Source of the DNA: a virus
Virus record (IMG/VR): IMGVR_UViG_3300032038_000319
Length of the DNA: 36,180 nt
Strand: one strand, 5' to 3'
The position numbers and the translations under genes were made by a program. Below, in pieces: positions 18,896 to 34,897 of the stretch (position 1 is the stretch's first letter; each line of letters starts with the position of its first letter). Under the pieces are notes generated by a model. That model had not been told where the DNA came from. It searched no databases and was given only the letters and a program-made list of their open reading frames with translations.

Positions 18896-18899
18896 TCGT

Positions 18900-19535: not shown

Positions 19536-19540
19536 TATCT

Positions 19541-19705: not shown

Positions 19706-19853
19706 CTTTCTCTTCCTCCTCGTCAAGTTCAATATCGCTCATCATCGCCATATATTCCATATCAGCTTTTGTTTTAATAAGGTCTGATAATACAGCTTCA
19801 ATGTTTCTACGCTCCTCTGCGATTTGTTCGATTATGTTTTTGTGTATAAACAT
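19686..19853 (-). CDS. Small acidic protein (55 aa) of the type that precedes XkdX after fibre genes
   Basis: Not in the track. ATG at 19853 follows AAGAGGTGATATAA. My translation is MFIHKNIIEQIAEERRNIEAVLSDLIKTKADMEYMAMMSDIELDEEEEKDAEEQV*. Confidence 0.45.
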   Translation of the reverse strand: MFIHKNIIEQIAEERRNIEAVLSDLIKTKADMEYMAMMSDIELDEEEEKDAEEQV

Positions 19854-19866
19854 TTATATCACCTCT

Positions 19867-21186
19867 TTATATGATGTTGCAAGCTGGCGCCACTCCAACA
19901 CTGTTGTAAGCATAGTTGTAGTACATACTGCCAGCCGAGTGCACAGTGTACACGCGGTAGGAGTTGGACGAGTAATGTGAGCGGAGCCAGTAATTACTTG
20001 CGCTTCCATTTCTATACATAATTCTCGATGCGTCATTAGAATAAGGCGTATATTTTGTGCCCTCACCACTATAGTCACTACTAACCTGAGATTGCGACAT
20101 TAAAAAGAAATAATCCTCTGTGGTGTAAGTACCGTTTATTGCACCTGTTGATGTATCGAAATACTTAGTAGTAACTTGTGTTTTGCCAATAGCACCTAAG
20201 AACTCAGGGTCTAAATCATACATAAACCCATTCATTGTTTCGGCATAAGCAGGAGGTCTATCCCACGGATTCTGAGGTTCCCACCATTGACCTGCTGGTT
20301 TGTCGCTATTAAGCCATTGTCTTATAGCGCTTTCCTTCCAATCGCCTGAGCCATATTTTCGTCTATGGTCTGTATTAAGATTTCCACTGCGGCTGCGAGT
20401 GTCATTAACCAATGTACCGAGATTTGTTCCTGAACTACCTGAAGTTACGCTAACTGTTTCGATAGGCGTTGTACTGCTACCACTTACATACGAACTTAAA
20501 GTTGAATTATCAGTACAAACAAGCTGACCACCAACGGGCACAGATTGTGTAAGCGTAAATTTATACTTTGCACTACCCGTCATATAGTAATATGTGCCCG
20601 CATTTAAAGCACTTGTTTGGCAAGCATAAAATGCTTCAGGTGCATCAAACACTAAATCATCAGGCAGTAAGTTATGGACTCTAAGTGTAAGAGCGTGAGA
20701 AAGATTAGGGTTTGCAGGTGTATCTATATCTTTGCCAATAACATCCCAAGTCAATTCACCACTACCTTGACTACAAGTGTATTGGTCGCCTATTGATATA
20801 TCGCCCATATCATTAGCTCTAACTTTCTGCTGTAATTCATCCCAAGCGGAAACAATTACTGCACTTCCCGTTATAAGTTCACCAGCTGCGTTATACGCTG
20901 TAATACCATCTGCAAGGGTTTCAGCCGTGACCGTTGTGGGTTGACTTAACATTGTTCCAGTTATCTGCTGCCCTGCCGCATTGTGGGCGGTATATCCGCT
21001 TTTTAGTGTTGCCGCCGTGACTGTGTCATTACTTGTATCAACGCCCGTTAAAATGCCATTAATCGCTGTCGGAAACTCTTCCAAGCCGTCACCCTGTGCG
21101 ACTGTGCCGCCTTTTGCTGTGATAGCATTTGCAATAGCTGTTTTTGCATCAACCAAACGTTGTAAATTTTCTGCGATTGTAGGCAT
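19867..21186 (-). CDS. Fibre / receptor-binding-like protein (439 aa) with DUF6273-like C-terminus
   Basis: Track ORF. N-terminus is ENLQRLVDAKTAIANAITAKGGTV. It has duplicated T.TA.TL..G.TA.NAAG..ITG motifs. The C-terminal YWLRS...SVGVAPACNII resembles the WW/YWLRS...GVRPA ending of DUF6273 proteins. This is from memory. Confidence 0.6.
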   Translation of the reverse strand: MPTIAENLQRLVDAKTAIANAITAKGGTVAQGDGLEEFPTAINGILTGVDTSNDTVTAATLKSGYTAHNAAGQQITGTMLSQPTTVTAETLADGITAYNAAGELITGSAVIVSAWDELQQKVRANDMGDISIGDQYTCSQGSGELTWDVIGKDIDTPANPNLSHALTLRVHNLLPDDLVFDAPEAFYACQTSALNAGTYYYMTGSAKYKFTLTQSVPVGGQLVCTDNSTLSSYVSGSSTTPIETVSVTSGSSGTNLGTLVNDTRSRSGNLNTDHRRKYGSGDWKESAIRQWLNSDKPAGQWWEPQNPWDRPPAYAETMNGFMYDLDPEFLGAIGKTQVTTKYFDTSTGAINGTYTTEDYFFLMSQSQVSSDYSGEGTKYTPYSNDASRIMYRNGSASNYWLRSHYSSNSYRVYTVHSAGSMYYNYAYNSVGVAPACNII

Positions 21187-21765
21187 TTACAACACCCCCT
21201 CTATCGTGGTGTTTATATCTCCGATAGTGTCTTGTATATCGGAAATATCGCTTGTATTCGTGCCGATTTGCGTTTTATCGGCTGCGGTCAAACCGCTCTG
21301 TATTGTTGCCCATTGTGCCGCCGTGAATGATGAATTGTTTAACGCATACTCAAATGCCCACGCTGTGCCGTTGTATTTGTAGCGATTGTATACTGTATTT
21401 CCTGCGGTATCTGTACCGGCAACAAACGCATAGTCATTATTTGTGACTGTTCCGCTGTATGCCTCTAATTCCGCAACGCTGTTAAACGTTCCAATAAAAT
21501 TGGCTGTGTTTGTTGATACCGAGGAATTGACAAAGTTGTATATTGCCTTGTTCTGCACGGCATTTTCACTTGTTCCGTTGACCTGTGTATCAACCTCAAC
21601 GCCGCCACCCTGCTCGATAGCTTCTTTTAACTCAATCAGCAACGCTTCAATTCTGCTCTGTGGCGGTGCTGTGTACTCAACGCCGTCTATGATAGCCGTT
21701 AGTATCGCTTCATTTCTGCTCTGCGGCGGTGCTGTGTACTGCACACCGCTGTTGTTCCTACTCAT
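21187..21765 (-). CDS. Fibre-associated structural protein (192 aa) with duplicated YTAPPQSR.EA.L motif
   Basis: Track ORF. The internal repeat VQYTAPPQSRNEAILTAI / VEYTAPPQSRIEALLIEL is a motif common at N-termini of Firmicute-phage fibre proteins. Confidence 0.5.
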   Translation of the reverse strand: MSRNNSGVQYTAPPQSRNEAILTAIIDGVEYTAPPQSRIEALLIELKEAIEQGGGVEVDTQVNGTSENAVQNKAIYNFVNSSVSTNTANFIGTFNSVAELEAYSGTVTNNDYAFVAGTDTAGNTVYNRYKYNGTAWAFEYALNNSSFTAAQWATIQSGLTAADKTQIGTNTSDISDIQDTIGDINTTIEGVL

Positions 21766-21769
21766 AGCC

Positions 21770-23029
21770 TTATACCTCCGTTCGCTCTTCGTCTACAACG
21801 TCAATTTTTACATTTGCGCCTGCCTGATACTGTGCCGCCAAATCTGCATCAATCCAGTTCAGCGACATATAACGTTTACCCTCTAATTCGGGCAAAGGTC
21901 TTAAGCCCAGCCACGTTCTATACTCGTTTACATAGCCGCCGCCCTGCGGTGCTATTGTGTTTATCATTTCGAGCGTTTGTGATACCGTCATAAAGATTAA
22001 TTCTTTTGGGTATAACTCTATGCGATTTCCAAACGCCTTTTCACGGCACGTAAACAGCTTTTTCGTGAATGCCTGCGAAATCGCCTTGATTATCGGCTCT
22101 AACGTGCGCTGATAGAATGCTTCGTATGTTTCTTTTGTGTAGTTTGAGTTAAGAATATCGACAGGAACGCCAAAATTTCTTAAAATCTTTTCATCAACGA
22201 ATTTGAGTGTCTTATCGTCAACAATCTCGCTTTTACGCTCAAACGGCGTAAACTCCGCTTTAAGGTCAATCGGCAAAAATCCGCTTTCTGAATTTTGAAG
22301 CTTTCGCTCTAATTCTTTTAAATTGCGTTCCATATCTCCGTCATCAAGCAGGGTATTGTATTTCACAATACCATTGACTTGATACGATGATTTCATCGCC
22401 TTTGCAACACCTTTTAAAAGTTCCTCATTAAGTTCGAGGGTCTTTAAAAGTGCCATGTTGTCAGGCTGTCCCATTCTGTCGCCGCCCATATACTGATTAA
22501 CGCTGTAATTGTATCTGATATGTATTACATCATCGTATGGTATTGTGGTTTTCTCGCCGTTCCAAAACCAAAACGTCACGTATAATCTGCCGCTCTCATC
22601 TTCGATAAAATCGACCTGTGTCGGCTGTATCGGATATAGTGCTTCATAATATCTGCGCTCTTCGCCTGTCTTTTCGTCTGTCCATACCCTATAAACAGGT
22701 ATTACAAACGCATTGTAATTCATCAAGAGCAGATAGCATATTTTCTCTATAAATTCCGATGTTGTCATTAATGGATTAGGCTCGTTTAATACGTCTTGCA
22801 CCGTACTCTTGACGGGTATCGGGTCTGTATCTCTGTATCTGACGTGTGTCGGGTTGAGTTTCTTCATTTCGTCAACGATACACTTTAACGCCTGCTTAAC
22901 AACATCGCTTGCATAAATATTTGTGCCAAACTGCGAAAACAGGGGCATATAGCCGTCTAATGTCGGCGCAAACCTCCGCTTTGCAGGCGGCTTGTGAAAA
23001 AGTTTATCAAAAAGCCCCGTATAAATCAC
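21770..23029 (-). CDS. Portal protein (HK97 family)
   Basis: Track ORF, 419 aa, with a 4-nt overlap with terL. Size and sequence character fit HK97-type portals. Confidence 0.8.
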   Translation of the reverse strand: MIYTGLFDKLFHKPPAKRRFAPTLDGYMPLFSQFGTNIYASDVVKQALKCIVDEMKKLNPTHVRYRDTDPIPVKSTVQDVLNEPNPLMTTSEFIEKICYLLLMNYNAFVIPVYRVWTDEKTGEERRYYEALYPIQPTQVDFIEDESGRLYVTFWFWNGEKTTIPYDDVIHIRYNYSVNQYMGGDRMGQPDNMALLKTLELNEELLKGVAKAMKSSYQVNGIVKYNTLLDDGDMERNLKELERKLQNSESGFLPIDLKAEFTPFERKSEIVDDKTLKFVDEKILRNFGVPVDILNSNYTKETYEAFYQRTLEPIIKAISQAFTKKLFTCREKAFGNRIELYPKELIFMTVSQTLEMINTIAPQGGGYVNEYRTWLGLRPLPELEGKRYMSLNWIDADLAAQYQAGANVKIDVVDEERTEV

Positions 23030-24711
23030 CCTTTCAGCATTTTTACAAAGTCGCTTCTATATCGGCGGTACATCTCATAAGCTATTGTGAGCGTGACCGC
23101 TCCGTCTATGCGCTTGCTCGGTATCTTTTTTACTACCTGACAATTGCCTAAGTTGTCAACGTCAAGGGCAGCATTACCAAAACACCACGCATCAACCTCA
23201 TTCTGATTGTAGTTTATTAGTTGCTGTTTAAAATCCGCTTCGCACAGCTTCACAGCATTTGATAATGTCAATTTATTTTGTATAACGATCTCGGTGTCAA
23301 ATCCGTATTCGTCCATTCGCTTCAAAAATTCCTTTGAAAACTTAACGTCATATCCGCATTTATACACCTTGATTTTGTATTCCTTATACACCTTGAAAAA
23401 CCAATCAGCGACAAGCGTTAAATCAATATCATTACCCTCGCAGATAGTCAATAGCCCAGCCTGCACCCATTCTTTATACTTTGCGCCTGCTTCTTTATCA
23501 TCGCTATCCGTCAATTTGCTCTCAGGTATAAAATAATGCGACAAGATGTATTTGCTCTTGTCGCCTTTTCTCATTAACAATATTTTTGCGCTGGTCATAT
23601 CTGTTGTTTCTGACATATCCACGCCGCCGAGACCTATTGCACCCCGGAAATCGTCTATATCATATACCGCCTGATATGCATAATCCTCTATGTTCAACCA
23701 AGATTTCACGCTGTTTTGCTTGAAATTAAAATCCTTTGACAATACAAATATTCTGTCAGCGGTGCTTTTCCTTGCCGCCGCTATCTGCGTTCTCAAATAA
23801 TCCCATTTCTTAACAACGCCGAGCGAGGGATTTGATTTTTCCCAGCTTTTTTCATTCTGCCATATTTCTTGTTCGCTGTCCTGCGTGTAAAGCCACGGCA
23901 GAAACCTTTCAGCGGCTATATCATCATTTTCGCCGTTGATTGTTTTTCTTGCATCTCTTAACAACTCATCGAGTGCGCCGTCATTAACAAAGCCCTCTGT
24001 TGTTATCATTATCAGCTTTGGATTATCTTTCAAAGATTGCGATTGCTCAATTGATTTGATAATTGTATTATCTTTCATTTCGTGTATCTCATCAACCGCC
24101 GCATAATCAATATTACGCCCCTCTTTATTTCGGGTGCGGTCTGACAGCTTAAAAATCTTTGAGTTATTGACATTGATTTTGATAAAACGCTGATTTCTGC
24201 CCGTGTCAATTTGTTCAGGGTCAATCAGCGTCCTCATAACATCTATCGCATCATATAAAATGCTTGCTTGTATATCATCATTCGATGAGCAAACAAGGTC
24301 AGCACCCTCGTTTCCGATAATGCTCTCTGTCAATATCAATGCCGAGGTGAGTTCTGACTTGGTATTTTTGCGCCCAATCATAAGCAACGCTCTTTGAAAC
24401 CTGTCAGCGTGCTTGATATTGCCGTTTACATCGGTAAATGTGATATCACGCATTTTAAAGCTGTAAAGCACCTCAATAAATGCCTTTTGCCACAGCATCA
24501 GCTTCATTGGCTTGCCGTAAAAAGGTGACTTTGTAAGCTTGATACAATTCTCCATAAAATCAATTCTGATTTCTGCATCTGTGGTATCGTATATATAGCG
24601 TTCATCGTCAAGGTCATTGATAAGATTGTCAAGTTCCGTTATCAGCTCCACACCTGCGATGATTTCTTTGCGGCGAATAGCATCTCGATATTGTATAAGA
24701 TAATTACTCAT
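23026..24711 (-). CDS. terL: Terminase large subunit (Terminase_1-like)
   Basis: Track ORF, 561 aa. It has a Walker A-like MIGRKNTKS, a DEIHE Walker B-like segment (AAVDEIHEM) and a nuclease half. Confidence 0.85.
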   Translation of the reverse strand: MSNYLIQYRDAIRRKEIIAGVELITELDNLINDLDDERYIYDTTDAEIRIDFMENCIKLTKSPFYGKPMKLMLWQKAFIEVLYSFKMRDITFTDVNGNIKHADRFQRALLMIGRKNTKSELTSALILTESIIGNEGADLVCSSNDDIQASILYDAIDVMRTLIDPEQIDTGRNQRFIKINVNNSKIFKLSDRTRNKEGRNIDYAAVDEIHEMKDNTIIKSIEQSQSLKDNPKLIMITTEGFVNDGALDELLRDARKTINGENDDIAAERFLPWLYTQDSEQEIWQNEKSWEKSNPSLGVVKKWDYLRTQIAAARKSTADRIFVLSKDFNFKQNSVKSWLNIEDYAYQAVYDIDDFRGAIGLGGVDMSETTDMTSAKILLMRKGDKSKYILSHYFIPESKLTDSDDKEAGAKYKEWVQAGLLTICEGNDIDLTLVADWFFKVYKEYKIKVYKCGYDVKFSKEFLKRMDEYGFDTEIVIQNKLTLSNAVKLCEADFKQQLINYNQNEVDAWCFGNAALDVDNLGNCQVVKKIPSKRIDGAVTLTIAYEMYRRYRSDFVKMLKG

Positions 24712-24998
24712 TGTTTTAATTTCTGCAAATATTCCCTCAAGGGTGACGTTTCGGAATTGCCCGTTTCCTTGATAAGCAGTTTTACTATCTCTTTATATGC
24801 AGATAAGCATTTTTGATATGCATAAAATGCATCTGTTGTTTTCATCTGTGCCTTGTTTTTCGGGTTGACTTTATAAAAATTAAACTGTTTTAATTCGTCC
24901 AGTTCTTTTTCAAGGTCAATCATTTCCTCGATGAGCCGTGAGGTCTTTATATCTGTCGCCAGTTTTTTAAGCTGTTTTATCCTTTTTTCTTTATCCAT
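24708..24998 (-). CDS. Putative terminase small subunit (by position; P27-like size)
   Basis: Track ORF 24708..25007, trimmed to the ATG at 24998 after AAGGTG. It has a 4-nt overlap with terL and is downstream of an HNH gene, as in HNH/P27-type cos packaging modules. Confidence 0.45.
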   Translation of the reverse strand: MDKEKRIKQLKKLATDIKTSRLIEEMIDLEKELDELKQFNFYKVNPKNKAQMKTTDAFYAYQKCLSAYKEIVKLLIKETGNSETSPLREYLQKLKQ

Positions 24999-25140
24999 TT
25001 TCCACACCTTTTTGTTTTTTCGTATTTAATGGAATGATATATCACTTTTTCAGATTTTTTCAATTTTTAAAATTTTGGAATTTAAAATTGCCTTGCGTGT
25101 TTATGAGTAGCCCCATACCAATCCCCAAGGGCTAAATTTT

Positions 25141-25839
25141 TTAATCGATAGGGGGGGCATATCTGTCAAACCAAGTGTCAATATATTCAATCCATTCGTT
25201 TGATTTCTGCTTTGCTCTCTCAATGCAAACATCTTTCGGCGTATCTATAAATATGATCTGCTTTGCGCCTACTGTTTCTGCTAAACGTTCACGCTCTCCT
25301 TGTAAAGGATATCCACCAATAATAAATGCTTTGCGCCAACGCCCACGCCTGACCCGTATCATGTCAAGCAAAGCATCTCGCAAAGCAAATACATTCTGTT
25401 TCAATTCATTTGGCTTTTCATATGCTGTGCAGCTTTCGGCTCTTATTGCCGCCCATAGCCTGTCAATGTCAAGGATAATGTCGCCGCTCTCGGCATTCTC
25501 TTTAACCCACGTTGACTTGCCTGAACACGGCGCACCATATACAATAAATACTTCCTGCTCTCTGTGAGTGTTATATCCGAAGCGTTTGTGTATTTCGTTA
25601 TGGCATTTGAAATGTATCAGCATAACGTTCTTCGGATTTAAAGATATCATCGCATCATCTACGTTATCATCTGTTAACTCTTCGATGTGATGTCCGATAC
25701 AATCATACGCTTTTACTATCGGCTTTCCGCAATGCTCACAAATAATTGAGCCGTCTGCCTGTGTGCGTTCCTGCCGTAATGTGTTTATAAATCCCTCCCA
25801 TTTACGAGATTTATAAAACCTCTGTAGCTTTTCACTCAT
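25141..25839 (-). CDS. HNH endonuclease fused to a P-loop kinase/NTPase-like domain
   Basis: Track ORF 25141..25866. Start set to the ATG at 25839, which forms an ATGA overlap. The HNH motif is CEHCGKPI...GHHIEEL...N...HFKCHNEIH. The Walker A is VYGAPCSGKSTW, followed by an AAA_33/zeta-like segment. Confidence 0.7.
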   Translation of the reverse strand: MSEKLQRFYKSRKWEGFINTLRQERTQADGSIICEHCGKPIVKAYDCIGHHIEELTDDNVDDAMISLNPKNVMLIHFKCHNEIHKRFGYNTHREQEVFIVYGAPCSGKSTWVKENAESGDIILDIDRLWAAIRAESCTAYEKPNELKQNVFALRDALLDMIRVRRGRWRKAFIIGGYPLQGERERLAETVGAKQIIFIDTPKDVCIERAKQKSNEWIEYIDTWFDRYAPPID

Positions 25840-26201
25840 ACCGATGTAACGGTTACCTTTTTCCAACCGCCGAGATGTTCGCCCTGCGTATCTGTATAAT
25901 AATGACAGTAATACAAATCGCTGTCATATTCAAACAATACCATTGCAGCCGTATTTTTTATAATCGTCATTATTGCCATATCTGTTGACTGTGTTGAAAC
26001 TGGTATGCTCACAGGATAGCCGTTTGTTGTGCTTGTGCCGTTCATCTCATATATTGTTATGCCACTCTCTGCATCACCGATAAGGCTTGACAGCGTTGCC
26101 GTTAAGCCTGATACTTCCTCATAATATGCATTATTGCCCGTTATAACAGGCGCAGAATACGGCTTGAAGCATTTGTTATCCTTTACGAAATTATCAGCCA
26201 T
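25836..26201 (-). CDS. Hypothetical protein (121 aa)
   Basis: Track ORF, overlapping both neighbours by a few nt. No recognisable motif. Confidence 0.45.
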   Translation of the reverse strand: MADNFVKDNKCFKPYSAPVITGNNAYYEEVSGLTATLSSLIGDAESGITIYEMNGTSTTNGYPVSIPVSTQSTDMAIMTIIKNTAAMVLFEYDSDLYYCHYYTDTQGEHLGGWKKVTVTSV

Positions 26202-26688
26202 TGTTCACATCTCCCTCTATACTTGACAAATCAAGGTCAAAGTTGTTTGCTTCGGCTATTAGCTTTTTTAACTCAAATTCACGCTTGCGCAAATCAAGCG
26301 TTTGCGGGTCATTCGCCCAGTTGTCACGGTCGAGGTTTTTCAAGAGCAGGTGTATTGCCGCCACATCTGCATCAACCTCTTTGATTATCTTTTCCTTATA
26401 TGTTACGCTTTTCCCGTCCTCTGTGCGTGTGTATGCCTTGACCGTTTCAAGCTTGTGTTTTTGTGCCAGCTTTGCAAGCTCGCCCTTTAAATCTGCGATA
26501 AATAACTCTTTCGATGTTTTAAAAATCTCCGAAAACTCCGCATATTTCGTCTTTGCGTCATAGTATGTTGATAATGCGATATGTAGCTGCTCACATATCT
26601 GCTCATCTGTTGCGCCGTGCCTTTTCCACTCTTTTATTTGCTCAAGATAAGGCTTGATATGCGTGTCATATTTATTTGGTCTGCCCAT
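26194..26688 (-). CDS. HTH DNA-binding protein resembling a terminase small subunit; first late gene
   Basis: Track ORF, 164 aa. MGRPNKYDTHIKPYLEQIKEWKRHGATDEQICEQLHIALSTYYDAKTKY is the N-terminal HTH pattern seen in many terS proteins. It is followed by a coiled coil. Confidence 0.5.
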   Translation of the reverse strand: MGRPNKYDTHIKPYLEQIKEWKRHGATDEQICEQLHIALSTYYDAKTKYAEFSEIFKTSKELFIADLKGELAKLAQKHKLETVKAYTRTEDGKSVTYKEKIIKEVDADVAAIHLLLKNLDRDNWANDPQTLDLRKREFELKKLIAEANNFDLDLSSIEGDVNNG

Positions 26689-26704
26689 ATAAAGCCCCTT
26701 TCAA

Positions 26705-26738
26705 ATAAAAAAAATGTCGCCCCGGATAACCGAGGCGA
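26705..26738 (-). terminator. Intrinsic terminator 17 nt upstream of the first late gene
   Basis: TCGCC (26717..26721) pairs with GGCGA (26734..26738), with an inner CGG/CCG pairing and an ATAA loop. On the - strand it is followed by CA + T8 (+ strand A-run 26707..26714). Confidence 0.7.
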
Positions 26739-27079
26739 TGAGGAGATAAGAAACCTTGTCAGAAAAAAGGTTGCAATAATTGGCAAGAGGTTTTATAGCG
26801 ATACCTCTCAAAACGCTGTCCAGTCCTGCGGCTCGTGCAAGACCTGAAATGTAAAGGAGTTTTCAAAAAGAAAACTTTGGAAAAGGGCTTATCAAGCGAA
26901 CACCCTTTAGAACGCCGCTATGTATATGAATTGCTGGTGATCGGCATTGGAATCCCACCAATCAGGCGGCGGTATAGCCTGCATTAATGACCGAACATTT
27001 GAGGGCGTGTGCGCTCGCCCTCGAAAGGCTGTGAAAATATTAAGATAGGGAAAAAATAAAATGTTTAGCTTGTATGCCC
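26739..27079 (-). ncRNA. Candidate structured leader / non-coding RNA of the late operon
   Basis: No ORF with an RBS is present. There is a series of stem-loops at 27001..27022, 26946..26962, 26882..26908, 26858..26876, 26786..26808 and 26752..26772. The region is bounded by the promoter at 27086..27114 and the terminator at 26705..26738. Confidence 0.45.
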
Positions 27080-27085
27080 ATTATA

Positions 27086-27114
27086 ATTATATCACTATGT
27101 TTTCGTACATACAA
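27086..27114 (-). promoter_or_regulatory. Candidate late promoter: -35 TTGTAT, 17-bp spacer, extended -10 TGaTATAAT
   Basis: Read on the - strand. The -35 element is at 27114..27109, TG at 27094..27093 and TATAAT at 27091..27086. Confidence 0.55.
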
Positions 27115-27120
27115 GGAAAC

Positions 27121-27150
27121 CACCGTAAAACGCCGTAAAAGCGATGTAAA
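27121..27150 (-). promoter_or_regulatory. Three helically phased 10-bp direct repeats just upstream of the -35 (candidate activator sites)
   Basis: The - strand reads TTTTTACATCGC TTTTACGGCG TTTTACGGTG. The repeats have 10-bp periodicity and abut the -35 region. Confidence 0.4.
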
Positions 27151-27170
27151 AAAATATATCCTCTGTTTGT

Positions 27171-27566
27171 CTATTTTTCACAATCAAGCTTTTTAAGATA
27201 ATTATTGATGTTGCGCCTGAGATTGTCGCCGTCTGCCTGCATCGCATCGCCTACCTCTTCCCATGTTTTGAAGCCCTCATAGCATAGCATCTCTAAAGCT
27301 CGCCTATATTCGGTTATCGGTATGCCTGCGATGAAGATGTCAATTTCGGCTACCTGCCGCTTAACGTCTTTCTGCGCAGCTATCAAATTGATCGAACCCT
27401 CGCCGTGAATGTAGCCCTCGACCTTTTTTGTAACCTTGCTGTATGCAGGCGCACCGCTCGACCCCTGCACGCTGTCATATACCTTGCGCTTGTATAGCTG
27501 GTTTTCTATGCACTCCAGTTTTTCTGTAAGTGCTTTATACTTTTTCGTGATGTCGGATGCTGTCAT
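27171..27566 (-). CDS. RinA/ArpU-like late-gene transcriptional regulator (sigma-70 region-4-like C-terminus)
   Basis: Track ORF 27171..27608, trimmed to the ATG at 27566 after GAGGTGAAACA. Size is ~130 aa, with a central SSGAPAYSK segment and a C-terminal ITEYRRALEMLCYEGFKTWEEVGDAM HTH. It is the last early gene before the packaging genes. Confidence 0.5.
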   Translation of the reverse strand: MTASDITKKYKALTEKLECIENQLYKRKVYDSVQGSSGAPAYSKVTKKVEGYIHGEGSINLIAAQKDVKRQVAEIDIFIAGIPITEYRRALEMLCYEGFKTWEEVGDAMQADGDNLRRNINNYLKKLDCEK

Positions 27567-27570
27567 TGTT

Positions 27571-27933
27571 TCACCTCGTTTCCAACCAGCGTTTTGATAA
27601 ATAGGCATTATCGGATATATCTTTATCGCTTTCTATCCTGCCCATTTGCCGTGTTAGTTTTTGATTTATAAAATAATCAATCCGTTTCTCTGCTTCGTCT
27701 CCAAAATAATGGCTTAATATCTGCTGTATCATAATCGTTACATCGGCGCATTCTTCGGCTAAGTTGAACATCGCCTGCGTTCTGTCAAACGTCTTGCCGC
27801 TCTGCTCTGCCCGTGTCAACTTTGAAACCGCCTGAATTAACTCTGCGCATTTTTCGGCTAATATTCCTTTTTGACTTTCTATGCCGTAATGCTTGCATAT
27901 CTGCTCACACTCACATTTCTGCTTTATTGTCAT
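27571..27933 (-). CDS. MazG-like nucleotide pyrophosphohydrolase (tentative)
   Basis: Track ORF, 120 aa. The paired helices LAEKCAELIQAVSK and LAEECADVTIMIQQI resemble the E..E / E..D MazG metal-binding helices. Confidence 0.4.
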   Translation of the reverse strand: MTIKQKCECEQICKHYGIESQKGILAEKCAELIQAVSKLTRAEQSGKTFDRTQAMFNLAEECADVTIMIQQILSHYFGDEAEKRIDYFINQKLTRQMGRIESDKDISDNAYLSKRWLETR

Positions 27934-27944
27934 TTTTATCCCCC

Positions 27945-28196
27945 TTAATCAGCAACATCAAAATATTCTTGGCGTTTTTTCTCCCTATATAGTTTTGCAC
28001 ATTGGTCACACATATCAATCCATTTCCCGTTTTTGTTTCTTCTATGTTCCCACCCGTGTTCTCTTGCTACACCTATATGTTGTCCAAACTCAAAGCCTGT
28101 TATTTCAGTCCATAACACTACTTCACATATATCGCATTTTACCGCAATACAGTTTGTATCACGAAATCTTGCATTTGTATAGTTAAAATGTCCCAT
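27945..28196 (-). CDS. Small zinc-ribbon protein (83 aa)
   Basis: Track ORF 27945..28268, trimmed to the ATG at 28196 after CGAGGAGGATGAAG. It has CDIC ... CDQC cysteine pairs. Confidence 0.5.
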   Translation of the reverse strand: MGHFNYTNARFRDTNCIAVKCDICEVVLWTEITGFEFGQHIGVAREHGWEHRRNKNGKWIDMCDQCAKLYREKKRQEYFDVAD

Positions 28197-28395
28197 CTTC
28201 ATCCTCCTCGTTAGTTTCGCCCACTCTACCGAATGCATTGGTAAGGCTTTCCGCCGTGCTTTTTTCAACGTTAAAAGTTTTTATAATTACGTTTGATGCG
28301 TCAAAATATCCCTCAATGTATTTCAAACGCTCTCTTAAATCGGCGTTCTCCCTTTCAAGCCGTTTAATCTTCTTTTTCTTGCTCATTTTCATCAC
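28183..28395 (-). CDS. Small coiled-coil protein (70 aa)
   Basis: Track ORF with a basic N-terminus, a leucine-zipper-like KRLERENADLRERLKYIE segment and an acidic tail. Confidence 0.45.
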   Translation of the reverse strand: MMKMSKKKKIKRLERENADLRERLKYIEGYFDASNVIIKTFNVEKSTAESLTNAFGRVGETNEEDEDGTF

Positions 28396-28546
28396 TCCTT
28401 TGAATTTTTCTTAAAATCCGTTCTGCCCTCTTGTTCAAAGCCGTTCCAAGTGCGCCGCATACAATGCACATCGGTTCGTGATATACCCATATGCAGCCGC
28501 ATTTGTCGCATCGGAAACGTGGGCGTTCCTGCTCTTTCTTACTCAT
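28364..28546 (-). CDS. Small zinc-ribbon protein (60 aa)
   Basis: Track ORF 28364..28564, trimmed to the ATG at 28546 (MSKKEQ). It has CDKCGC ... CIVCG cysteine pairs. Confidence 0.5.
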   Translation of the reverse strand: MSKKEQERPRFRCDKCGCIWVYHEPMCIVCGALGTALNKRAERILRKIQRSDENEQEKED

Positions 28547-28649
28547 CGTCATTATCCTTTGCAACTATCAGCAATGCCGAAACAATAACGCCTGAGAAAA
28601 AACCTATTATCGCACCTATTCCCCCGGATATCAGATTGTCAATCATCAT
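28539..28649 (-). CDS. Mini membrane protein (36 aa)
   Basis: Not in the track. ATG at 28649 follows GAGGAGGCAAA. My translation is MMIDNLISGGIGAIIGFFSGVIVSALLIVAKDNDDE*. It overlaps both neighbours in coupling register. Confidence 0.4.
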   Translation of the reverse strand: MMIDNLISGGIGAIIGFFSGVIVSALLIVAKDNDDE

Positions 28650-28837
28650 TTTGCCTCCTCATTTAGCCACTTTGCTATGCACTCACCGCAGCTACCGCAA
28701 CAATCTGAGCTGTAAGTTATCATGCCGTCCGTTAATGCTTGCATAACGCAGTCGCATTGGAAACCTGTTATAGCCTTGTTTATATTACACAACACATCGA
28801 AGATGTTACTCTTTAAAAGCTTTTCTCTGTTCGTCAT
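28646..28837 (-). CDS. Small Cys-rich phage protein (63 aa)
   Basis: Track ORF. The pattern CDC....SSDCCGSCGECIAKWLNEE is a common Firmicute-phage small protein of unknown function. Confidence 0.5.
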   Translation of the reverse strand: MTNREKLLKSNIFDVLCNINKAITGFQCDCVMQALTDGMITYSSDCCGSCGECIAKWLNEEAK

Positions 28838-28912
28838 TTAATCACCCCCTCACTCATACCTTATAAAATCATCGCCATAAATCCCGTTCAGCACATCAAA
28901 AACGTGCCTTCC

Positions 28913-29785
28913 TCACCAAAGTGACAACTGCTCTGATTGTTCAACTGACTGACAATTTTTAACCGCTTGATTATAATAGCTCTCTTTAAGTTCTACGCCT
29001 ATCGCACGCCTGCCCATTTCAACAGCCTTATAACATTCAGATCCAATTCCTAAAAACGGTGTCAGCACTATATCGTTTGGATTTGTCCATAAATTAATGC
29101 CTCTTTCGATCACTTTGAGCTGTAACGGGCATATATGCTTTTCATCTTTGTTATCTCTTGCGGACTTGTATTGCAAGGTATCAGAGGGATTTATATCTGT
29201 CCATATAGGGCTTGCGTATTTTTGCCATATTGCAACGGGAAAACTATCGTTTGTATGAGTTATCGGCTCAGGATTATCTCCCGGCTTTCTCATCGTTATC
29301 AAATAATCTGGTATGCCTTGCCTTGACATTGCACTATCCTTTTTTATTTGCTTATGCAGTAACCCAAGTGCTTTGGTGCGTTGCATAGCAATTACTGGAT
29401 CTTTCCAAATACATACCTCCGAATGATAGATAAAGCCGTGGTCTTGAAAAAGTCTTATCAAATCACCTCTGAAATCATCTATTCCAATAAACCCGTCTCT
29501 GCTCTTGCTTGTTGGCAGATTCATACAATGCACACTCATCAATCTACCGGGCATCAAAACTCTGTATAATTCTTTAACGATAAATTCAAAATGTTCAAAG
29601 AACTCGTGCCTTGTCCTGCAATTTCCCAAATCTCTATCAGAATTACTATATGTGTATAAGCTTGCGAACGGAGGCGAATATATTATATAATGCACACTAC
29701 TATCAGGTATTTGAGGAATAACCTCGCAGCTATCTCCGTTATACAAAGCCAATCTATCTGTTATATATTGTTTTTTTACATTCAT
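28913..29785 (-). CDS. DNA methyltransferase (beta-class N6-adenine or N4-cytosine)
   Basis: Track ORF, 290 aa. Catalytic motif IV IIYSPPFASLY precedes the AdoMet motif I LTPFLGIGSECYKA, the order typical of beta-class N6_N4 MTases. Confidence 0.8.
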   Translation of the reverse strand: MNVKKQYITDRLALYNGDSCEVIPQIPDSSVHYIIYSPPFASLYTYSNSDRDLGNCRTRHEFFEHFEFIVKELYRVLMPGRLMSVHCMNLPTSKSRDGFIGIDDFRGDLIRLFQDHGFIYHSEVCIWKDPVIAMQRTKALGLLHKQIKKDSAMSRQGIPDYLITMRKPGDNPEPITHTNDSFPVAIWQKYASPIWTDINPSDTLQYKSARDNKDEKHICPLQLKVIERGINLWTNPNDIVLTPFLGIGSECYKAVEMGRRAIGVELKESYYNQAVKNCQSVEQSEQLSLW

Positions 29786-29786
29786 A

Positions 29787-31193
29787 TTATCCTACCTCAC
29801 TTCTTATCCACTCAGGGATAATTATATTTTCTGTTGCTATATACTTTTCTGTCATTCTGACAGTTGACCTTACATCATGCTTTAATATATCTTTAGTATG
29901 TCTTACCAGCTCCGTTGTCATCCTCTGTGCATCAGCTTGTTTTCTCTCTATATTGGTTTTTACAGCCCCTTCTTTTTCTGATGTTATTATATATACATTG
30001 ACAGCTTCTGTTTGCCCAAATCTCCAGCACCGTCTTACAGCTTGATAATAGCTTTCAAAACTATCAGACAAACCGACAAAAATCACATTATGACAATTTT
30101 GCCAGTTCATTCCCCACCCGGCAATTTTTGGCTTTGATATTAAAACTCTTACTTCACCTTTTGAGAAGTCCATCATCGCATTTTTTTTGTGTTCGTCACT
30201 GTCAGATCCTTTAACCTCTACACCGCCATTTATAGCTTTGGTTAATTCTTCACTTTCCTTATTTAAATCACACCATACCAAGAACTGTTCATCAGATTTA
30301 TTACATATCTCAGCAGCTACCTTTACCCTATCAAATAAGCTTTCATTTCTTGCTTGTCTACGCTCATTCAAACTTATTGACATTTCAGGAATTAGCATCA
30401 TCTGCCCACTCTCATCTTCAAGATCTAATGATTTAACAATCTTTTCGGTTATATTTAGCGGGGGCAATTTGTATAGCGAACCATCATAATCCAAATCTTC
30501 AGGATTTGTTAAGCAACACGCCCATGATGCAATCCATTCAAAAAACTTGTCTTTCGCATGACCTTTTAATCTCCACGATGATGTGTTTCCACCATCATGC
30601 ACAAAAAAAGTAGATAGCATTTCGGTCTGTGTCATAATGCCGAGAAATTCAGCATGATTACCGATCTCCATAAAGTCATTTGGTGCAGGCGTTGCAGTAC
30701 AGCATAACTTATATGGCGTATTCTTAAATTTATCTGTTATCATTTTTCTTGTCTTTCCATCATGATTTTTTAAAATACTGCTTTCATCAAGTACAACCCC
30801 AAAAAAATCATCATTAAACTTATGCAACATTTCATAATTAGTTATGTTTATACCATTAATCACATCATCTTGTGATCTGCATAAATTTACTTGAAATCCG
30901 AACTTTGAACCTTCGCTGACCGTTTGCGCTGCAACTGCCAATGGTGCAACTATTAATACAGCACGATCATTTTTTTTGGATACTATATCAGCAAATGAAA
31001 GCTGCTGTAATGTTTTTCCAAGCCCACAGTCCTCAAACAAGCAAGCTTTACCTTTACGAATAGCCCAAGCGACTATATCTTTTTGCCATTCATATAGATT
31101 CTGATTAAGTTCATTTTTATCAACTTCAAATCCACTTGCGTTTGATTTGATCTCTTTACTTTTGAGAAATTCCATATACTTTGATTTTTCCAC
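29787..31193 (-). CDS. SNF2/DEAD-like superfamily-2 helicase
   Basis: Track ORF, 468 aa. Motif I is EDCGLGKTLQ, motif II is VVLDESSILKN, followed by TATPAPN and C-terminal helicase motifs (GLSDSFESYYQAVRRCWRFGQ). Confidence 0.8.
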   Translation of the reverse strand: MEKSKYMEFLKSKEIKSNASGFEVDKNELNQNLYEWQKDIVAWAIRKGKACLFEDCGLGKTLQQLSFADIVSKKNDRAVLIVAPLAVAAQTVSEGSKFGFQVNLCRSQDDVINGINITNYEMLHKFNDDFFGVVLDESSILKNHDGKTRKMITDKFKNTPYKLCCTATPAPNDFMEIGNHAEFLGIMTQTEMLSTFFVHDGGNTSSWRLKGHAKDKFFEWIASWACCLTNPEDLDYDGSLYKLPPLNITEKIVKSLDLEDESGQMMLIPEMSISLNERRQARNESLFDRVKVAAEICNKSDEQFLVWCDLNKESEELTKAINGGVEVKGSDSDEHKKNAMMDFSKGEVRVLISKPKIAGWGMNWQNCHNVIFVGLSDSFESYYQAVRRCWRFGQTEAVNVYIITSEKEGAVKTNIERKQADAQRMTTELVRHTKDILKHDVRSTVRMTEKYIATENIIIPEWIRSEVG

Positions 31194-31208
31194 TATTTAT
31201 CTCTCCTT

Positions 31209-31544
31209 TTACGGCTTGATTTCCACGTTTGCCTGAAACTCTTTGCGTATATCAAGCCTGTATTTATCTTTAAGCATCTGCTCAATGTCCAAAGGGCTGA
31301 ACCGATGATGTAGTCTTGACGGATTGCACATCAAGTCATTCGTTGCGTGCAAAGCATCTGCAAAGTTTCTAAGCCTTTGCTTTCTCCAGCCGTAAGCCGT
31401 CAACAACGTGAAAAATACCGTGCATAACGCCTGCGCCATTATATCATCAGCGCACTCCTTGAAGATTTCTTCTCTGACTTCTTCGTATTCCTGCCGAGCT
31501 GCCTTTTTAACGTCTTTTTCGCTTGTTAAAACCCTTGCTTTCAT
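31209..31544 (-). CDS. Hypothetical protein (111 aa from MKARV; the ORF is open up to 31595)
   Basis: Track ORF 31209..31595. The ATG at 31544 has a GGTGGA RBS, whereas the ATG at 31595 has none. Confidence 0.45.
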   Translation of the reverse strand: MKARVLTSEKDVKKAARQEYEEVREEIFKECADDIMAQALCTVFFTLLTAYGWRKQRLRNFADALHATNDLMCNPSRLHHRFSPLDIEQMLKDKYRLDIRKEFQANVEIKP

Positions 31545-31641
31545 TTTTTCCACCGCCTTTTTCAAACTTTCCCAGTATCGCCGCCGTTGCAACATACGAT
31601 ATCAAGGATATTATGCCATATAGTATGAGTATGTAGATCAT
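31507..31641 (-). CDS. Possible mini membrane protein (44 aa)
   Basis: Not in the track. My translation is MIYILILYGIISLISYVATAAILGKFEKGGGKNESKGFNKRKRR*. It has a weak RBS and fills the 31545..31692 gap. Confidence 0.25.
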   Translation of the reverse strand: MIYILILYGIISLISYVATAAILGKFEKGGGKNESKGFNKRKRR

Positions 31642-31692
31642 CTTAACGCCACGTCCAATCGTGATTAAACACTTTATATCCTCTTATACTCA

Positions 31693-32082
31693 TTACATTA
31701 CCCCCGACCTATCAATTAACTCACTTATCAGCTCATCTTTGCGCCTTGCCTCATCGCTGTATAAGGCTATCTGCCTGTTGTTTTCCCACATCTTGCCGAT
31801 TTCCTCAGGCTCTTCGTGGCAAAAACATCGAAATGCTATTCGTGCAAGCGGATATTCTTCTTCGCCCCAGCTGTGTAATATCTGTACTATCGAATGCCCT
31901 GTAATCGGCTGCTCTCTGATTGTCATTAACTGATATATCTTTACTTTCGGGTGAGTAAACTCCAACAATGCGTGAACGTAATCTTTTTCAATCTCCAATA
32001 TTCTGCATTGTGTTCCGTCTTTGTTCATTATCCCGATATACTCATCATATATCTGCTTTATCTGCTCTTTGGTAAGTTCCAT
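31693..32082 (-). CDS. Hypothetical protein (129 aa)
   Basis: Track ORF in operon register. No recognisable motif. Confidence 0.5.
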   Translation of the reverse strand: MELTKEQIKQIYDEYIGIMNKDGTQCRILEIEKDYVHALLEFTHPKVKIYQLMTIREQPITGHSIVQILHSWGEEEYPLARIAFRCFCHEEPEEIGKMWENNRQIALYSDEARRKDELISELIDRSGVM

Positions 32083-32085
32083 TTA

Positions 32086-32490
32086 TCACAACTCCTTTAC
32101 ATCTACAAAAACGCCCTCTTGCTCATCCTCAAAAACATAGCATTTTTGCGCTTTAATCTCAATTACCTGCTTATCATCGGTAAAAGCTACCCCGTTTAAG
32201 CCGTCAAGCACAATCTTCACGATGTTGTCAATATCGGGCTTTACTGTGGGCTTTATCTCTCCTGCATATACCGCCGCCTGTTTTTTCTTGCTCCAGCTTT
32301 TCGGCACAAGGTAAAACGCTGTTATTTCAACCGCTATCGGCTTATCGCTTACTCCGTATCGCTCACACTTCCACAGCATCGCAATCATTTGCTCATACGT
32401 CCTTGTGCTTTCGGGCGTGACTGCATGACCTTTCCAATATCTCGGTCTGCCCTTGCCCTGTGGCTTGCCGGGAATAAATATTTGCATCAC
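32086..32490 (-). CDS. rusA: RusA-family Holliday junction resolvase
   Basis: Track ORF. IFIPGKPQGKGRPRY and KPDIDNIVKIVLDGLNGVAFTDDKQV are RusA signatures. Confidence 0.85.
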   Translation of the reverse strand: MMQIFIPGKPQGKGRPRYWKGHAVTPESTRTYEQMIAMLWKCERYGVSDKPIAVEITAFYLVPKSWSKKKQAAVYAGEIKPTVKPDIDNIVKIVLDGLNGVAFTDDKQVIEIKAQKCYVFEDEQEGVFVDVKEL

Positions 32491-32491
32491 C

Positions 32492-33334
32492 TCACCTCAT
32501 TCTGTAATTTTTTGATTTGTCTTTCGGGATATCCAGTACATAGCTTTTTGCCATTTCCCTGATACGCCCTGCTGTCGCCTCATCGAGTGCCGATATATCG
32601 TAAATCGTCAGCTCTGATGATATGATTGTTATCTTGTCGGGCTGCTTATATCGCTTGTCAATGACCTCGAATGTTTTGATAATGTCCTGCCGTGTAAACT
32701 TTGCGTCCGTTCCGTCAGGCTTGAAATAATCGTCTATATACAGCACATCAACGTTGCACAAATCATCAGCATAGCTTGCCCTTGTTTCATCTTTGTAGTC
32801 TTTGAGCCGTTCAATCATTTGCACCCACATCACATATCTTGTAGCCTTGCCCTGCTTGATAAACTCCCTTGCAATAGCCGAGCAGATATGTGTTTTGCCT
32901 GCGCCGCTTTGCCCGCCGATGTAAAAACACCTTGCCTTATCTTCTTTGAGCGTGAGGTCTTGCTTAATGAACGATAACGCCCTTTCTTTGATGTTTTTTT
33001 GCCACTCTTCGGGGGTCTCAAAATCTGCTATCTTTTTTATGCTGCCCTCTAAGCCGCTTTGCTTTAGAATGCCGATTGACTTTCTCACCTTTTGGCATTT
33101 GCAGGGCTTATATGCTATGCTCTCATCAACGATAACAGGCATATATCCTCTGTTTTTGCACTCATCGCAATTGTAGCCGTCTATCATGTCAAGCGTGCCT
33201 GTCCTCTTTAACTCTTTTTCAAGGTCATATCTCAGCCAATCTTCCGCAGAATACGCATCAAACGATTTGAATGCCTCGATATCTCTCATCTGCTCCGACA
33301 AGACCGAAGTCAGAGAGTCCATTCCTATTATCAT
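32492..33334 (-). CDS. DnaC/IstB-like AAA+ helicase loader
   Basis: Track ORF, 280 aa. Walker A is GGQSGAGKTHICSAIA and Walker B is VLYIDDY. The N-terminus carries a Cys cluster CDECKNRG...CKCQK. Confidence 0.8.
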   Translation of the reverse strand: MIIGMDSLTSVLSEQMRDIEAFKSFDAYSAEDWLRYDLEKELKRTGTLDMIDGYNCDECKNRGYMPVIVDESIAYKPCKCQKVRKSIGILKQSGLEGSIKKIADFETPEEWQKNIKERALSFIKQDLTLKEDKARCFYIGGQSGAGKTHICSAIAREFIKQGKATRYVMWVQMIERLKDYKDETRASYADDLCNVDVLYIDDYFKPDGTDAKFTRQDIIKTFEVIDKRYKQPDKITIISSELTIYDISALDEATAGRIREMAKSYVLDIPKDKSKNYRMR

Positions 33335-34010
33335 AATTTCCCTCCAATACCTTGATAAAGTTTGACGGCTTCATTAACCAATCAAAACTTGCTTTGAAAG
33401 GTCTGCTTCCTTGATTGCTTACCTTGCCCGTAAGAAAGTCGCTTTTCTCTGCTTTTTGAAATACTGTGATGATATCATCAAAGCTGTATTCTTTGAGCCT
33501 TGCTTTGACAGTTGCTTTTCTTGATTTGTCAATGCTGATGATTTTAGGTAGGGAAATACAGATTTCACAGAATTTTTCTTTGACTTGGGTATATATATTC
33601 TCATCTATATTACTAACTATTTTACTATCTATATTACTTTCTTCACAATTTGTGAAGTCTGCCTTGCTTTTTTGTGTAGTCTGCCTTGCGCTTTTGTGTA
33701 GTCTGCCTTCACAATTTGTGAAGTCTGCCTTGCGCAAACTAACCTTACTTTTAAGCACTCTCTTGCGCCCGTCAAAGCTTTTAATATAGATATATCCTAA
33801 CTGTATCAGCTTTGAAATAGCCCTTGAAACGTTACCTTTACTGCACTTGCAAAATGCCGCTATATGTTCATTTGAAGCATAACACCCTGTTTCTTCATCG
33901 TCTAAGCTGTCAATCTCGGCAAGGATAACCTTATCTAATGCACTAAGGTTATCATCAAGCCATATCTCTTTGGGTATCCATATACCCTTGAATTGCCGTT
34001 CCTCTCCCAT
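33258..34010 (-). CDS. Replication initiator / replisome organiser (N-terminal wHTH, Phg_2220_C-like C-terminus)
   Basis: Track ORF, 250 aa. N-terminus is GIWIPKEIWLDDNLSALDKVILAEI...NVSRAISKLIQLGYI. C-terminus is VKARLKEYSFDDIITVFQKAEKSDFLTGK...FDWLMKPSNFIKVLEGNY. The central part carries the iterons. Confidence 0.7.
   Translation of the reverse strand: MGEERQFKGIWIPKEIWLDDNLSALDKVILAEIDSLDDEETGCYASNEHIAAFCKCSKGNVSRAISKLIQLGYIYIKSFDGRKRVLKSKVSLRKADFTNCEGRLHKSARQTTQKSKADFTNCEESNIDSKIVSNIDENIYTQVKEKFCEICISLPKIISIDKSRKATVKARLKEYSFDDIITVFQKAEKSDFLTGKVSNQGSRPFKASFDWLMKPSNFIKVLEGNYDNRNGLSDFGLVGADERYRGIQIV
33601..33733. repeat. Candidate origin of replication: four 22-bp-spaced iterons plus an adjacent AT-rich block, inside the initiator gene
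   Basis: The core GTG(A/T)AGTCTGCCTT occurs at 33652, 33674, 33696 and 33718. The outer two are part of a perfect 26-bp repeat (33642..33667 and 33708..33733). The AT-rich block 33601..33641 contains CTATATTACT twice. Confidence 0.65.
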
Positions 34011-34081
34011 TTCATCACTCCTCCCAAAAGCGGTCTATAATCCGGGAATATACGCCCACGTAAAAACACCTCGCTTTCAGT

Positions 34082-34540
34082 TCAGAAGGGAATCCCCGAA
34101 TCCGATATAACATCTTCATAGTCGGTATAGCCGTTCTGTGGTGCGCCCTGTGGCGTGTTGTAAGGTATTTGGGTGTTGCTATACCCCTGATTGTTACCAC
34201 CGCTAAAACCACCGTTATTTTCGTTTTTAGGCTCACCCGTGAATGATGTTCTTTCGACTATTACATCTGTGGTATATACTGTTTCTCCGTTTTTGTTCTG
34301 ATAGCTTCCCGTCTTGATGTTGCCCTCAATGGCTATCATTCTGCCCTTGCCGAAATATCTGCCGATAAACTCAGCTGTCTGCCCGAATGCAACACAGTTG
34401 ATAAAATCGGCTGACTTCTCGCCGTTCTTCTGCGGTCTGTCCACCGCCACCGAAAACCTAAGCACAGCCGTTCCGCTCTGTGATTGCCTGATTTCAAGGT
34501 CTTTTGTTATGCGCCCCATTATGATTACTCTGTTTAGCAT
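34082..34540 (-). CDS. ssb: Single-stranded DNA-binding protein
   Basis: Track ORF 34082..34609, trimmed to MLNRVIIMGRITKDLEIR.. at 34540. It has an OB-fold N-terminus, a Gly/Asn/Gln-rich linker and an acidic tail DSGIPF. Confidence 0.9.
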   Translation of the reverse strand: MLNRVIIMGRITKDLEIRQSQSGTAVLRFSVAVDRPQKNGEKSADFINCVAFGQTAEFIGRYFGKGRMIAIEGNIKTGSYQNKNGETVYTTDVIVERTSFTGEPKNENNGGFSGGNNQGYSNTQIPYNTPQGAPQNGYTDYEDVISDSGIPF

Positions 34541-34727: not shown

Positions 34728-34729
34728 TT

Positions 34730-34843: not shown

Positions 34844-34897
34844 TTAACCACCTCTTTCTTTGATTATTTCAAAACCTCACGCCGCAAAACTTTACCG

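Follow-up and report, generated by a model that had tools for sequence, protein, structure and literature searches.

What controls the passage of transcription into the late genes of a phage when the early/late boundary is occupied by several hundred base pairs without a gene? Apart from RinA-type activators, little is understood about how temperate phages that infect Gram-positive bacteria of the gut and rumen time their late genes. The question is raised by virus record IMGVR_UViG_3300032038_000319, a 36,180-nucleotide (nt) stretch of DNA that we refer to as the window and whose coordinates are used throughout. Its early/late boundary contains a 482-nt gap without a conserved open reading frame (ORF), read on the minus strand from 27170 to 26689, between a regulator gene (ORF 27171..27566) and the first late gene (ORF 26194..26688). 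All features of the gap and the genes that flank it lie on the minus strand. Judging from comparative sequence evidence, the gap encodes a genuine conserved structured RNA module of ~370 nt, a leader RNA that probably determines if transcription proceeds into the late genes. The explanation that we favor, with a probability of about one half, is that the gap is a late-operon transcription-control module that travels with the upstream sigma-region-4-like regulator gene, and that it would act as a processive antitermination gate and not as a one-terminator riboswitch.

The evidence for a structured RNA comes from predicted folding energy and from covariation. A 386-nt RNA from the minus strand had a predicted energy of -105.3 kcal/mol, compared to -89.3 +/- 5.1 kcal/mol for dinucleotide shuffles (z = -3.15; 0/100 shuffles were as good). 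The leaders compared among relatives (~12 distinct ones) form about six sequence groups. For six close relatives, the full-length fold calculated with RNAalifold contained 77 pairs in 11 helices, with 12 of the 77 pairs changing on both sides. Column shuffles gave 4.5 +/- 1.4 such pairs, with 0/500 shuffles reaching 12, and a control in which one strand was slid by 1–3 columns gave 0–4. A covariance model, R1, which was seeded with the closest group only and consists of hairpin H9, the motif GCGUUU and hairpin H10, recovered the other leader groups with E values of 1e-6 to 1e-9. In the R1 alignment, 9/14 pairs of the H9/H10 core changed on both sides, and 94% of cells were paired versus 74.5% in shuffles. 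For helices P2 and P4, in a plain MAFFT alignment of 10 leaders, 6/11 pairs were compensatory and 98% of cells were paired. Lastly, the stem of the terminator at the end of the leader had 5/9 pairs changing on both sides across 11 leaders, with 94% of cells paired versus 79% in shuffles. In each of these four sets, covariation exceeded that in the shuffled and slid controls. The original prediction had staked its case on stems that are conserved and covary in related phages, and this is what we observed; all six of the stem-loops that it listed are present where it placed them, and we identified three further helices, P2, P3 and H9.

In 5′-to-3′ order, the first helix described in the predicted RNA is P1, a G+C-rich hairpin (GAGGGCG/CGCCCTC, 27001..27022) that is found in every group with differing stems (GAGGGC/GCCCUC, GGGGGC/GCCCCC, GGGGCG/CGCCCC and CCCGGG/CCCGGG). 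P1 is followed by a three-way junction (26939..26996) made up of the closing stem P2 (26996..26991 with 26944..26939), the hairpin P3 (26981..26977 with 26967..26963) and the T-loop hairpin P4 (ATTGG-TGGGATT-CCAAT, 26962..26946). The P4 loop has the consensus UGNRAWU, and at one locus (L056) has the canonical tRNA-like sequence UUCAAAU. We prefer this junction, in which P3 + P4 replaces a long P3 variant suggested by RNAalifold (UCAUUAAUGCAGGC with GCCUGAUUGGUG), because it is the only layout common to the other groups. Downstream of the junction, the closest group alone has H6 (AAAGGG/CCCTTT, 26882..26908), a hairpin with a GUUCGC-type loop. H6 represents an initial copy of the H10 unit, with three compensatory pairs within that group. 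H8 (AGTTTTC/GAAAACT, 26858..26876) is invariant in the closest group, and a second leader group has a related hairpin (AGUUUUUG/CAAAAACU).

The conserved 3′ core (26777..26859) consists of CUCC, H9, GCGUUU (26816..26811), H10 and CCAA. The stem of H9 (26844..26837 with 26829..26822) is wholly different in sequence from group to group and its pairing is kept, while H10 (AGAGGT/ACCTCT, 26808..26803 with 26791..26786) has a GUUCGC-type loop, GUUCGC(A)YAA. H9 together with GGCGUUUUUA, which includes the conserved GCGUUUU, itself scores as terminator-like in the second leader group (L042:3699-3738), and the GCGUUU that follows H9 could mark a pause site that depends on the hairpin. The last hairpin before the terminator is H11 (AACCTT/AAGGTT, 26752..26772), whose loop includes the conserved CUGACA (26762..26757). 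Elsewhere, CUGACA or UUGACA is flanked by other stems, namely GCCUA/UAGGC in L049, GUGUAU/AUACAC in L036 and GUGUA/UACAC in L045, as judged by eye with no formal count. The conserved single-stranded motifs are the P4 loop, the GCGUUU 5′ of H10, the H10 loop, CUGACA, and a YCUC..UCAAA tract before the terminator. The pyrimidine-rich YCUCUUCAAAY (26737..26757 region) and CUGACA(A) may resemble boxA and the P22 boxB loop, perhaps by coincidence. We do not claim two long-range helices suggested by RNAalifold (5′ GGCA with UGCC, and AACCUUUC with GAAAGCGUU), because within the closest group they either showed no variation or were disrupted, and inspection by eye did not recover them in the other groups. 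We also dropped a loop-loop pairing of GUUCGC with GCGA(A/G) of P1 that was inconsistent between groups.

An ORF survey of the window confirmed the earlier claim that the gap is the longest non-coding stretch and lies at the early/late boundary. Of the competing gaps, 19536..19866 has plausible small ORFs and 34844..35087 is shorter, at ~244 nt. All sense-strand ORFs in the gap are ≤36 amino acids (aa) with TTG starts, and the sole ATG ORF, of 25 aa (MQAIPPPDWW...), has no Shine-Dalgarno sequence. The 25-aa ORF is present in the closest leader group, which would be expected if the gap held a small protein gene. It is lost in the other groups, and the indels that separate the leaders of relatives are not multiples of three. 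Both observations argue against coding, and we rejected a small protein gene at the level of the family.

We next compared the RNA to known families. A cmscan search of the whole window against Rfam 15 at gathering thresholds, the search that had been called for when the RNA could not be assigned to a family by eye, gave no match. With the threshold relaxed to E values of up to 10, the region 26500..27400 matched only terminator-like and snoRNA noise (≤21 bits). The families covered include ROOL, GOLLD, raiA, HEARO, T-box, cobalamin, FMN, TPP, pRNA, tmRNA and epsC, which we take to be the Rfam family of the Bacillus EAR element, hence within the scan. No Rfam match was found in the leaders of L035, L036, L040, L045, L047, L049, L051, L055, L056 and L057, and ARAGORN found no tRNA or tmRNA gene in the window or 10 relatives, only an isolated T-arm-like hairpin. 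The leader is a new RNA family outside Rfam 15, within a type of system already known from mobile elements, that of leader or antitermination elements.

Relatives of the locus were collected in two ways. Regulator loci were assembled from a metagenome scan, from a protein search (17 clusters) with contig look-ups, and from a scan of IMG/VR with a regulator alignment, giving 20 loci. In 20/20 of these, a gene-free stretch of 296–630 nt lies directly after the regulator gene, with one contig ending inside the stretch. The first late gene, by contrast, varies among at least four kinds: a 164-aa terS, a 135-aa terS accompanied by another kind of terL, a gene for a ParB_N protein, and other genes. 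The second set consisted of terS relatives from IMG/VR and GTDB (L001-L024 and L026-L033; 32 loci, ≤58% aa identity). The gap was absent from all 32 of these terS-only loci by blastn, nhmmer, motif search and covariance model; a search for the T-loop hairpin plus GUGUUCGY found the element in regulator loci and in none of the 32, and R1 gave nothing below an E value of 0.05 on them. These data indicate that the element is inherited separately from terS. By the gene orders compared, the first late gene is interchangeable and outside the conserved module. At L048 (3079-3590, compared to window 26669..27180), the leader has 94% DNA identity and the adjacent regulator 66% protein identity, whereas at L035 the regulator has 90% protein identity and the leader 75% identity. 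This contrast suggests that the promoter-RNA-terminator unit is a mosaic module in its own right, and that regulator and RNA recombine independently. We found no match to the gap (blastn) or the regulator (tblastn) among 50,697 GenBank phages, no match in IMG/VR with exact-pattern scans for two conserved cores, and no relative in IMG/VR with a single regulator protein as query.

The 5′ end of the module contains a promoter preceded by phased repeats. Four direct repeats with a 10-bp phase, one more than the three originally placed at 27121..27150, occupy 27150..27111: TTTACATCGC (27150..27141), TTTTACGGCG (27140..27131), TTTTACGGTG (27130..27121) and GTTTCCTTGT (27120..27111). Phased 10-bp repeats, of the TTTAC/TTTCC type or another, occur at the equivalent place in all leader groups. 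The array is probably a regulator binding array or an upstream promoter element. The promoter (27086..27114) has the weak -35 hexamer (TTGTAT, 27114..27109), 17-nt spacer and extended -10 (TG-a-TATAAT, 27094..27086) that had been described, and was missed by our consensus scanner because the -35 agrees with the consensus at only 3/6 positions. Most leader groups retain a -35-like hexamer (mostly TTGnAn) and a -10-like hexamer preceded by TGn, and conservation extends to GTTTCCTTG, the sequence surrounding the -35. A second -10-like hexamer (TATAAT, 27085..27080) directly follows the -10; it is conserved, and it sits outside the transcribed region, upstream of the transcription start that we predict near 27079. 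In lambda-type Q antitermination, by comparison, the -10-like element behind the sigma-dependent promoter-proximal pause belongs to the initially transcribed region.

The 3′ end of the module is an intrinsic terminator (26707..26738). Its stem (26738..26717) has nine pairs, seven of them G-C, closed by a UUAU loop and followed by T8 (26714..26707). The GC hairpin and T8 are therefore as originally described, while the spacing from the last T to the ATG is 18 nt and not 17. Since the Shine-Dalgarno sequence (26700..26695) and the terS ATG (26688) lie just downstream, the terminator is within the 5′ untranslated region (UTR), the space downstream of it is too short for a promoter, and every late mRNA must cross it. 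It is the sole terminator-like match in 25800..28200 according to the consensus scanner. There is no terminator between the regulator gene and the leader, indicating that early transcription also meets the leader terminator. Among the relatives with a readable leader 3′ end, all but one retain this terminator; in L055 it is degraded. L055 also has an int-alpA RNA motif (RF02996; 2768-2837, 51.4 bits, E 2e-8, above gathering) ~110 nt downstream of its leader core; the window has no int-alpA match.

Transcription of the late genes meets further terminators in the window and in relatives. Over 6701..36180, there are only two strong minus-strand terminators, that of the leader, which is the strongest intrinsic terminator in 30 kb, and one inside the late operon at 14558..14539, meaning that the tail genes downstream of the latter need read-through. 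The second is part of a bidirectional hairpin (14539..14558; AAGGGGCT-TTTT-AGCCCCTT) with T-runs on both strands, between ORFs 14563..15408 and 14192..14512. At L042 and L044, which are from different samples, two tandem intrinsic terminators separate the leader from terS (L042:3799-3972 and L044:1112-1285), so that processive read-through is needed. Between the tandem terminators is the remnant of a ParB-like gene start (ATGAACATTATCGAAAAACG...). The arrangement looks like a recombination scar in the 3′ part of the leader, from CUGACA to the terminator, which seems to be the joint at which alternative late modules are swapped. We looked across the leader groups for a conserved terminator/antiterminator alternative pairing and found none, since the best partner of the terminator 5′ arm differs by group, being the P1 5′ arm, the T-loop stem, H10 or another hairpin.

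A terminator in the 5′ UTR, tandem and internal terminators, and the lack of a conserved antiterminator together favor processive antitermination over a single-terminator riboswitch. According to this model, the regulator would bind the repeats and turn the promoter on, and polymerase transcribing the leader would become resistant to termination. Resistance would be conferred either by the folded leader, which would act in cis on polymerase by itself or jointly with the regulator, or by regulator loaded at the promoter. The modified polymerase would then pass the leader terminator, which would function as a filter, as well as later terminators of the operon, and unmodified polymerase would be halted at the filter. 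The anatomical part of the gate on late transcription originally proposed stands (no promoter room after the terminator, conservation of the terminator, and tandem terminators); the control of read-through is something that we infer.

Several observations weigh against a processive antitermination gate. T-loop junctions are typical of ligand-binding RNAs. The covariation depends on ~10–11 distinct sequences, and the architecture differs between groups, with one group lacking a convincing T-loop and L055 having the degraded terminator noted above. Early transcripts that read through from the regulator gene would include the leader as well, such that a mechanism based on RNA alone cannot by itself separate early from late transcription, and some dependence on the promoter or regulator is still required. 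Moreover, the regulator resembles a RinA/DUF1492/sigma-r4-type activator, a type that uses promoter activation in staphylococcal phages (PMC3152322).

Two other explanations that keep a functional role for the RNA seem to us unlikely, and to a similar degree. According to the first, the leader is a riboswitch or attenuator, in which binding of a host metabolite, a tRNA or a protein to the T-loop junction RNA sets whether the single terminator forms, tying the late genes to host physiology. The RNA is large, conserved and multi-helical, with the terminator directly after it, and T-loop hairpins of its kind occur in FMN, cobalamin and TPP aptamers. Potential antiterminators are present in individual groups: the P1 5′ arm is complementary to the terminator 5′ arm in the two closest groups (-9 to -18.5 kcal/mol), as is the 5′ strand of H10 in L051 (-14.1 kcal/mol). 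However, this partner is not the same between groups, the junction is highly variable, no Rfam riboswitch matched even with E values of up to 10, and one sensor could not control both tandem terminators of L042 and L044. According to the second, the RNA is a stand-alone non-coding RNA of ~370 nt that acts in trans, as an anti-defense decoy or as a regulator of host or phage mRNAs, with the late genes expressed by leaky read-through. Its own promoter-like element, the strong terminator and the conserved structure between them would suit such an RNA, as would the recombination of the RNA module apart from the regulator allele (L048). On the other hand, the position between regulator and first late gene is fixed, in the same orientation, in 20/20 loci; there is no other promoter space for the late genes, and leaky read-through would be very inefficient with tandem terminators.

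A Q-like mechanism that operates at the level of DNA, with regulator loaded on polymerase at the promoter or repeats, is less likely again. In lambda, the Q / qut-pR' / 6S RNA / tR' system has a leader of 194 nt, and its terminator filters unmodified polymerase; that leader is not known to need a conserved fold. Both lambda and the phage described here have the order regulator gene, promoter directly downstream, short terminated leader, and late genes, and the second -10-like hexamer beside the -10 and the conserved GTTTCCTTG around the -35 would be consistent with loading at the promoter. By contrast with lambda, the leader here is ~370 nt, with helices kept by compensatory substitutions, which are unexpected in a passive spacer like the 6S RNA, and the regulator has no match to Phage_antitermQ or Antiterm in Pfam and no match to the Q family in the PDB fold search. 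Least probable, besides the small protein gene rejected above, is a DNA-level element (cos/pac, origin or parS), which the adjoining packaging genes and the HNH-terminase module downstream might suggest, but which is hard to reconcile with retention alongside at least three packaging or first-gene modules that are unrelated to one another, with absence from the terS relatives, and with the strand polarity given by a promoter and a terminator. For a cos/pac site in particular, there is no co-inheritance with a cognate terminase.

Among known systems, the closest analogues of the processive antitermination gate that we favor are lambda Q/6S/tR', HK022 put and the conAn1/conAn2 pair of pLS20, a system also present in other Gram-positive conjugative plasmids. 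In pLS20, a 383-bp intergenic region downstream of conAn1 contains an RNA element, conAn2, that antiterminates in cis; the ConAn1 protein gives processivity (PMC8191782). The conAn system acts only in cis and on several terminators, including heterologous ones; for the phage element, the tandem terminators of L042 and L044 and the internal terminator of the late operon would be indirect hints of comparable behavior. A G+C-rich segment and a stem-loop of conAn2 are essential (PMC8191782). As in conAn, a small protein gene precedes an intergenic region of ~300–400 nt that encodes RNA, at the head of a very long, terminator-containing operon of a Firmicutes mobile element, and the essential G+C-rich segment of conAn2 has a counterpart in the universal G+C-rich P1 of the phage leader; the comparison of conAn2 with the leader is one of layout and composition. 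Unlike conAn, the element is in a phage and not a conjugative plasmid, the RNA has its own promoter-like element and an immediately following terminator, and the regulator has no pXO2-34 domain (PF17362; Pfam, 11 family members, E up to 1) and is sigma-r4-like instead. Tn916 carries a comparable cis-acting element, canT, alongside an insulator terminator (PMC11658703). Like canT, put of HK022 and EAR of Bacillus are folded RNAs that are transcribed upstream of terminators and act in cis in processive antitermination. The phage leader greatly exceeds put (~70 nt, with two stem-loops) and EAR (~120 nt) in size (see also PMC8191782). We tentatively suggest, as a possibility somewhat short of an even chance, that the leader represents an undescribed class of cis-acting processive-antitermination RNA, in which a ~270–400-nt leader, carrying a T-loop junction and a hairpin with a GUUCGC loop, partners a small sigma-region-4-like protein and controls entry to the late operon in phages of rumen and gut Clostridia, as a phage counterpart of plasmid conAn.

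We also asked what kind of protein the adjacent gene encodes. The 131-aa product, whose gene always lies directly upstream of the element, matches phrog_36 ('transcriptional regulator', E 1.3e-7). Its family comprises 17 clusters at 90% identity, and a profile search extended this to 252 clusters at 50% identity, nearly all of ~130 aa. Pfam analysis of 11 family members identified no family above threshold; the weak matches were to Sigma70_r4 (E 0.01, 1/11), TIGR01636 (RinA; E 0.033, 1/11), sigma70-ECF and YlxM. An AlphaFold2 (AF2) model (predicted local distance difference test score, pLDDT, 80) comprises an N-terminal helix, a beta-hairpin and a bundle of helices at the C terminus. Compared to BFVD, the model matched small phage proteins annotated as Sigma70, sigma-70 region 4, DUF1492 and ECF sigma (E 3e-5 to 0.04), and nothing significant was found in the PDB. 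Based on these sequence and model comparisons, the regulator, with its sigma-region-4-like helix-turn-helix, is plausibly a late activator of the RinA/DUF1492 type. The earlier label 'RinA/ArpU-like' thus finds weak support in phrog_36, TIGR01636 and the fold matches.

The regulator gene shares with RinA/ArpU/Alt/DUF1492 genes its small size and its position directly upstream of terS at the early/late boundary, as well as weak similarity in sequence and fold, and the repeats upstream of the late promoter may be a binding site in both cases. For phages 80alpha and phi11, there are indications of a terminator separating rinA from terS, which seems to precede an activator-dependent promoter near terS (PMC3152322). 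No long structured leader is described for these two phages (PMC3152322), whereas the order here is the opposite: promoter, 370-nt RNA, terminator and ribosome-binding site.

A conserved, covarying RNA at the early/late switch, always tied to one regulator family, constitutes a concrete ~450-bp promoter-RNA-terminator module. If the RNA functions in antitermination, it would be a large addition to a very short list (put, EAR, conAn2 and canT), it would mean that phages as well as plasmids use an antitermination pair of protein plus RNA, and it would be, as far as we know, the first RNA-based late-gene antiterminator in Gram-positive phages. Should it sense a ligand instead, we would be looking at a phage riboswitch governing the timing of lysis. 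Either way, the leader is a new family for Rfam and a portable terminator-bypass part that could serve engineering.

The genes around the module are arranged as follows. Upstream of the regulator gene is a MazG-like gene (27571..27933, minus strand, phrog_2245). The first late gene encodes a small-terminase-like protein of 164 aa (phrog_309, E 3e-27), and is followed on the same strand by a gene for a 121-aa protein, a gene for an HNH-AAA_33 fusion (25141..25866), a gene for a 99-aa protein and the large terminase gene (23026..24711). The 241-aa fusion, which joins an HNH endonuclease to a kinase-like P-loop domain (AAA_33) between the terS-like gene and the large terminase gene, has as its best PHROG match phrog_4581 ('terminase small subunit', E 1e-50).

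Three repeat regions elsewhere in the window are also of note. The ORF-poor stretch 34844..35087 contains 3.3 copies of a 21-nt tandem repeat (34988..35055), lies just upstream of a gene resembling that for single-stranded DNA-binding protein (SSB-like, 34082..34609), and possibly represents an origin or an iteron region. Two adjacent tandem arrays at 33590..33735 (12 nt x 4.4 and 22 nt x 3.9), inside ORF 33258..34010, resemble iterons and could mark an origin inside a replication gene. Finally, 36 tandem copies of CCGTAG (86% matches) at 2236..2451 overlap the small ORFs 2216..2461 and 2232..2465.

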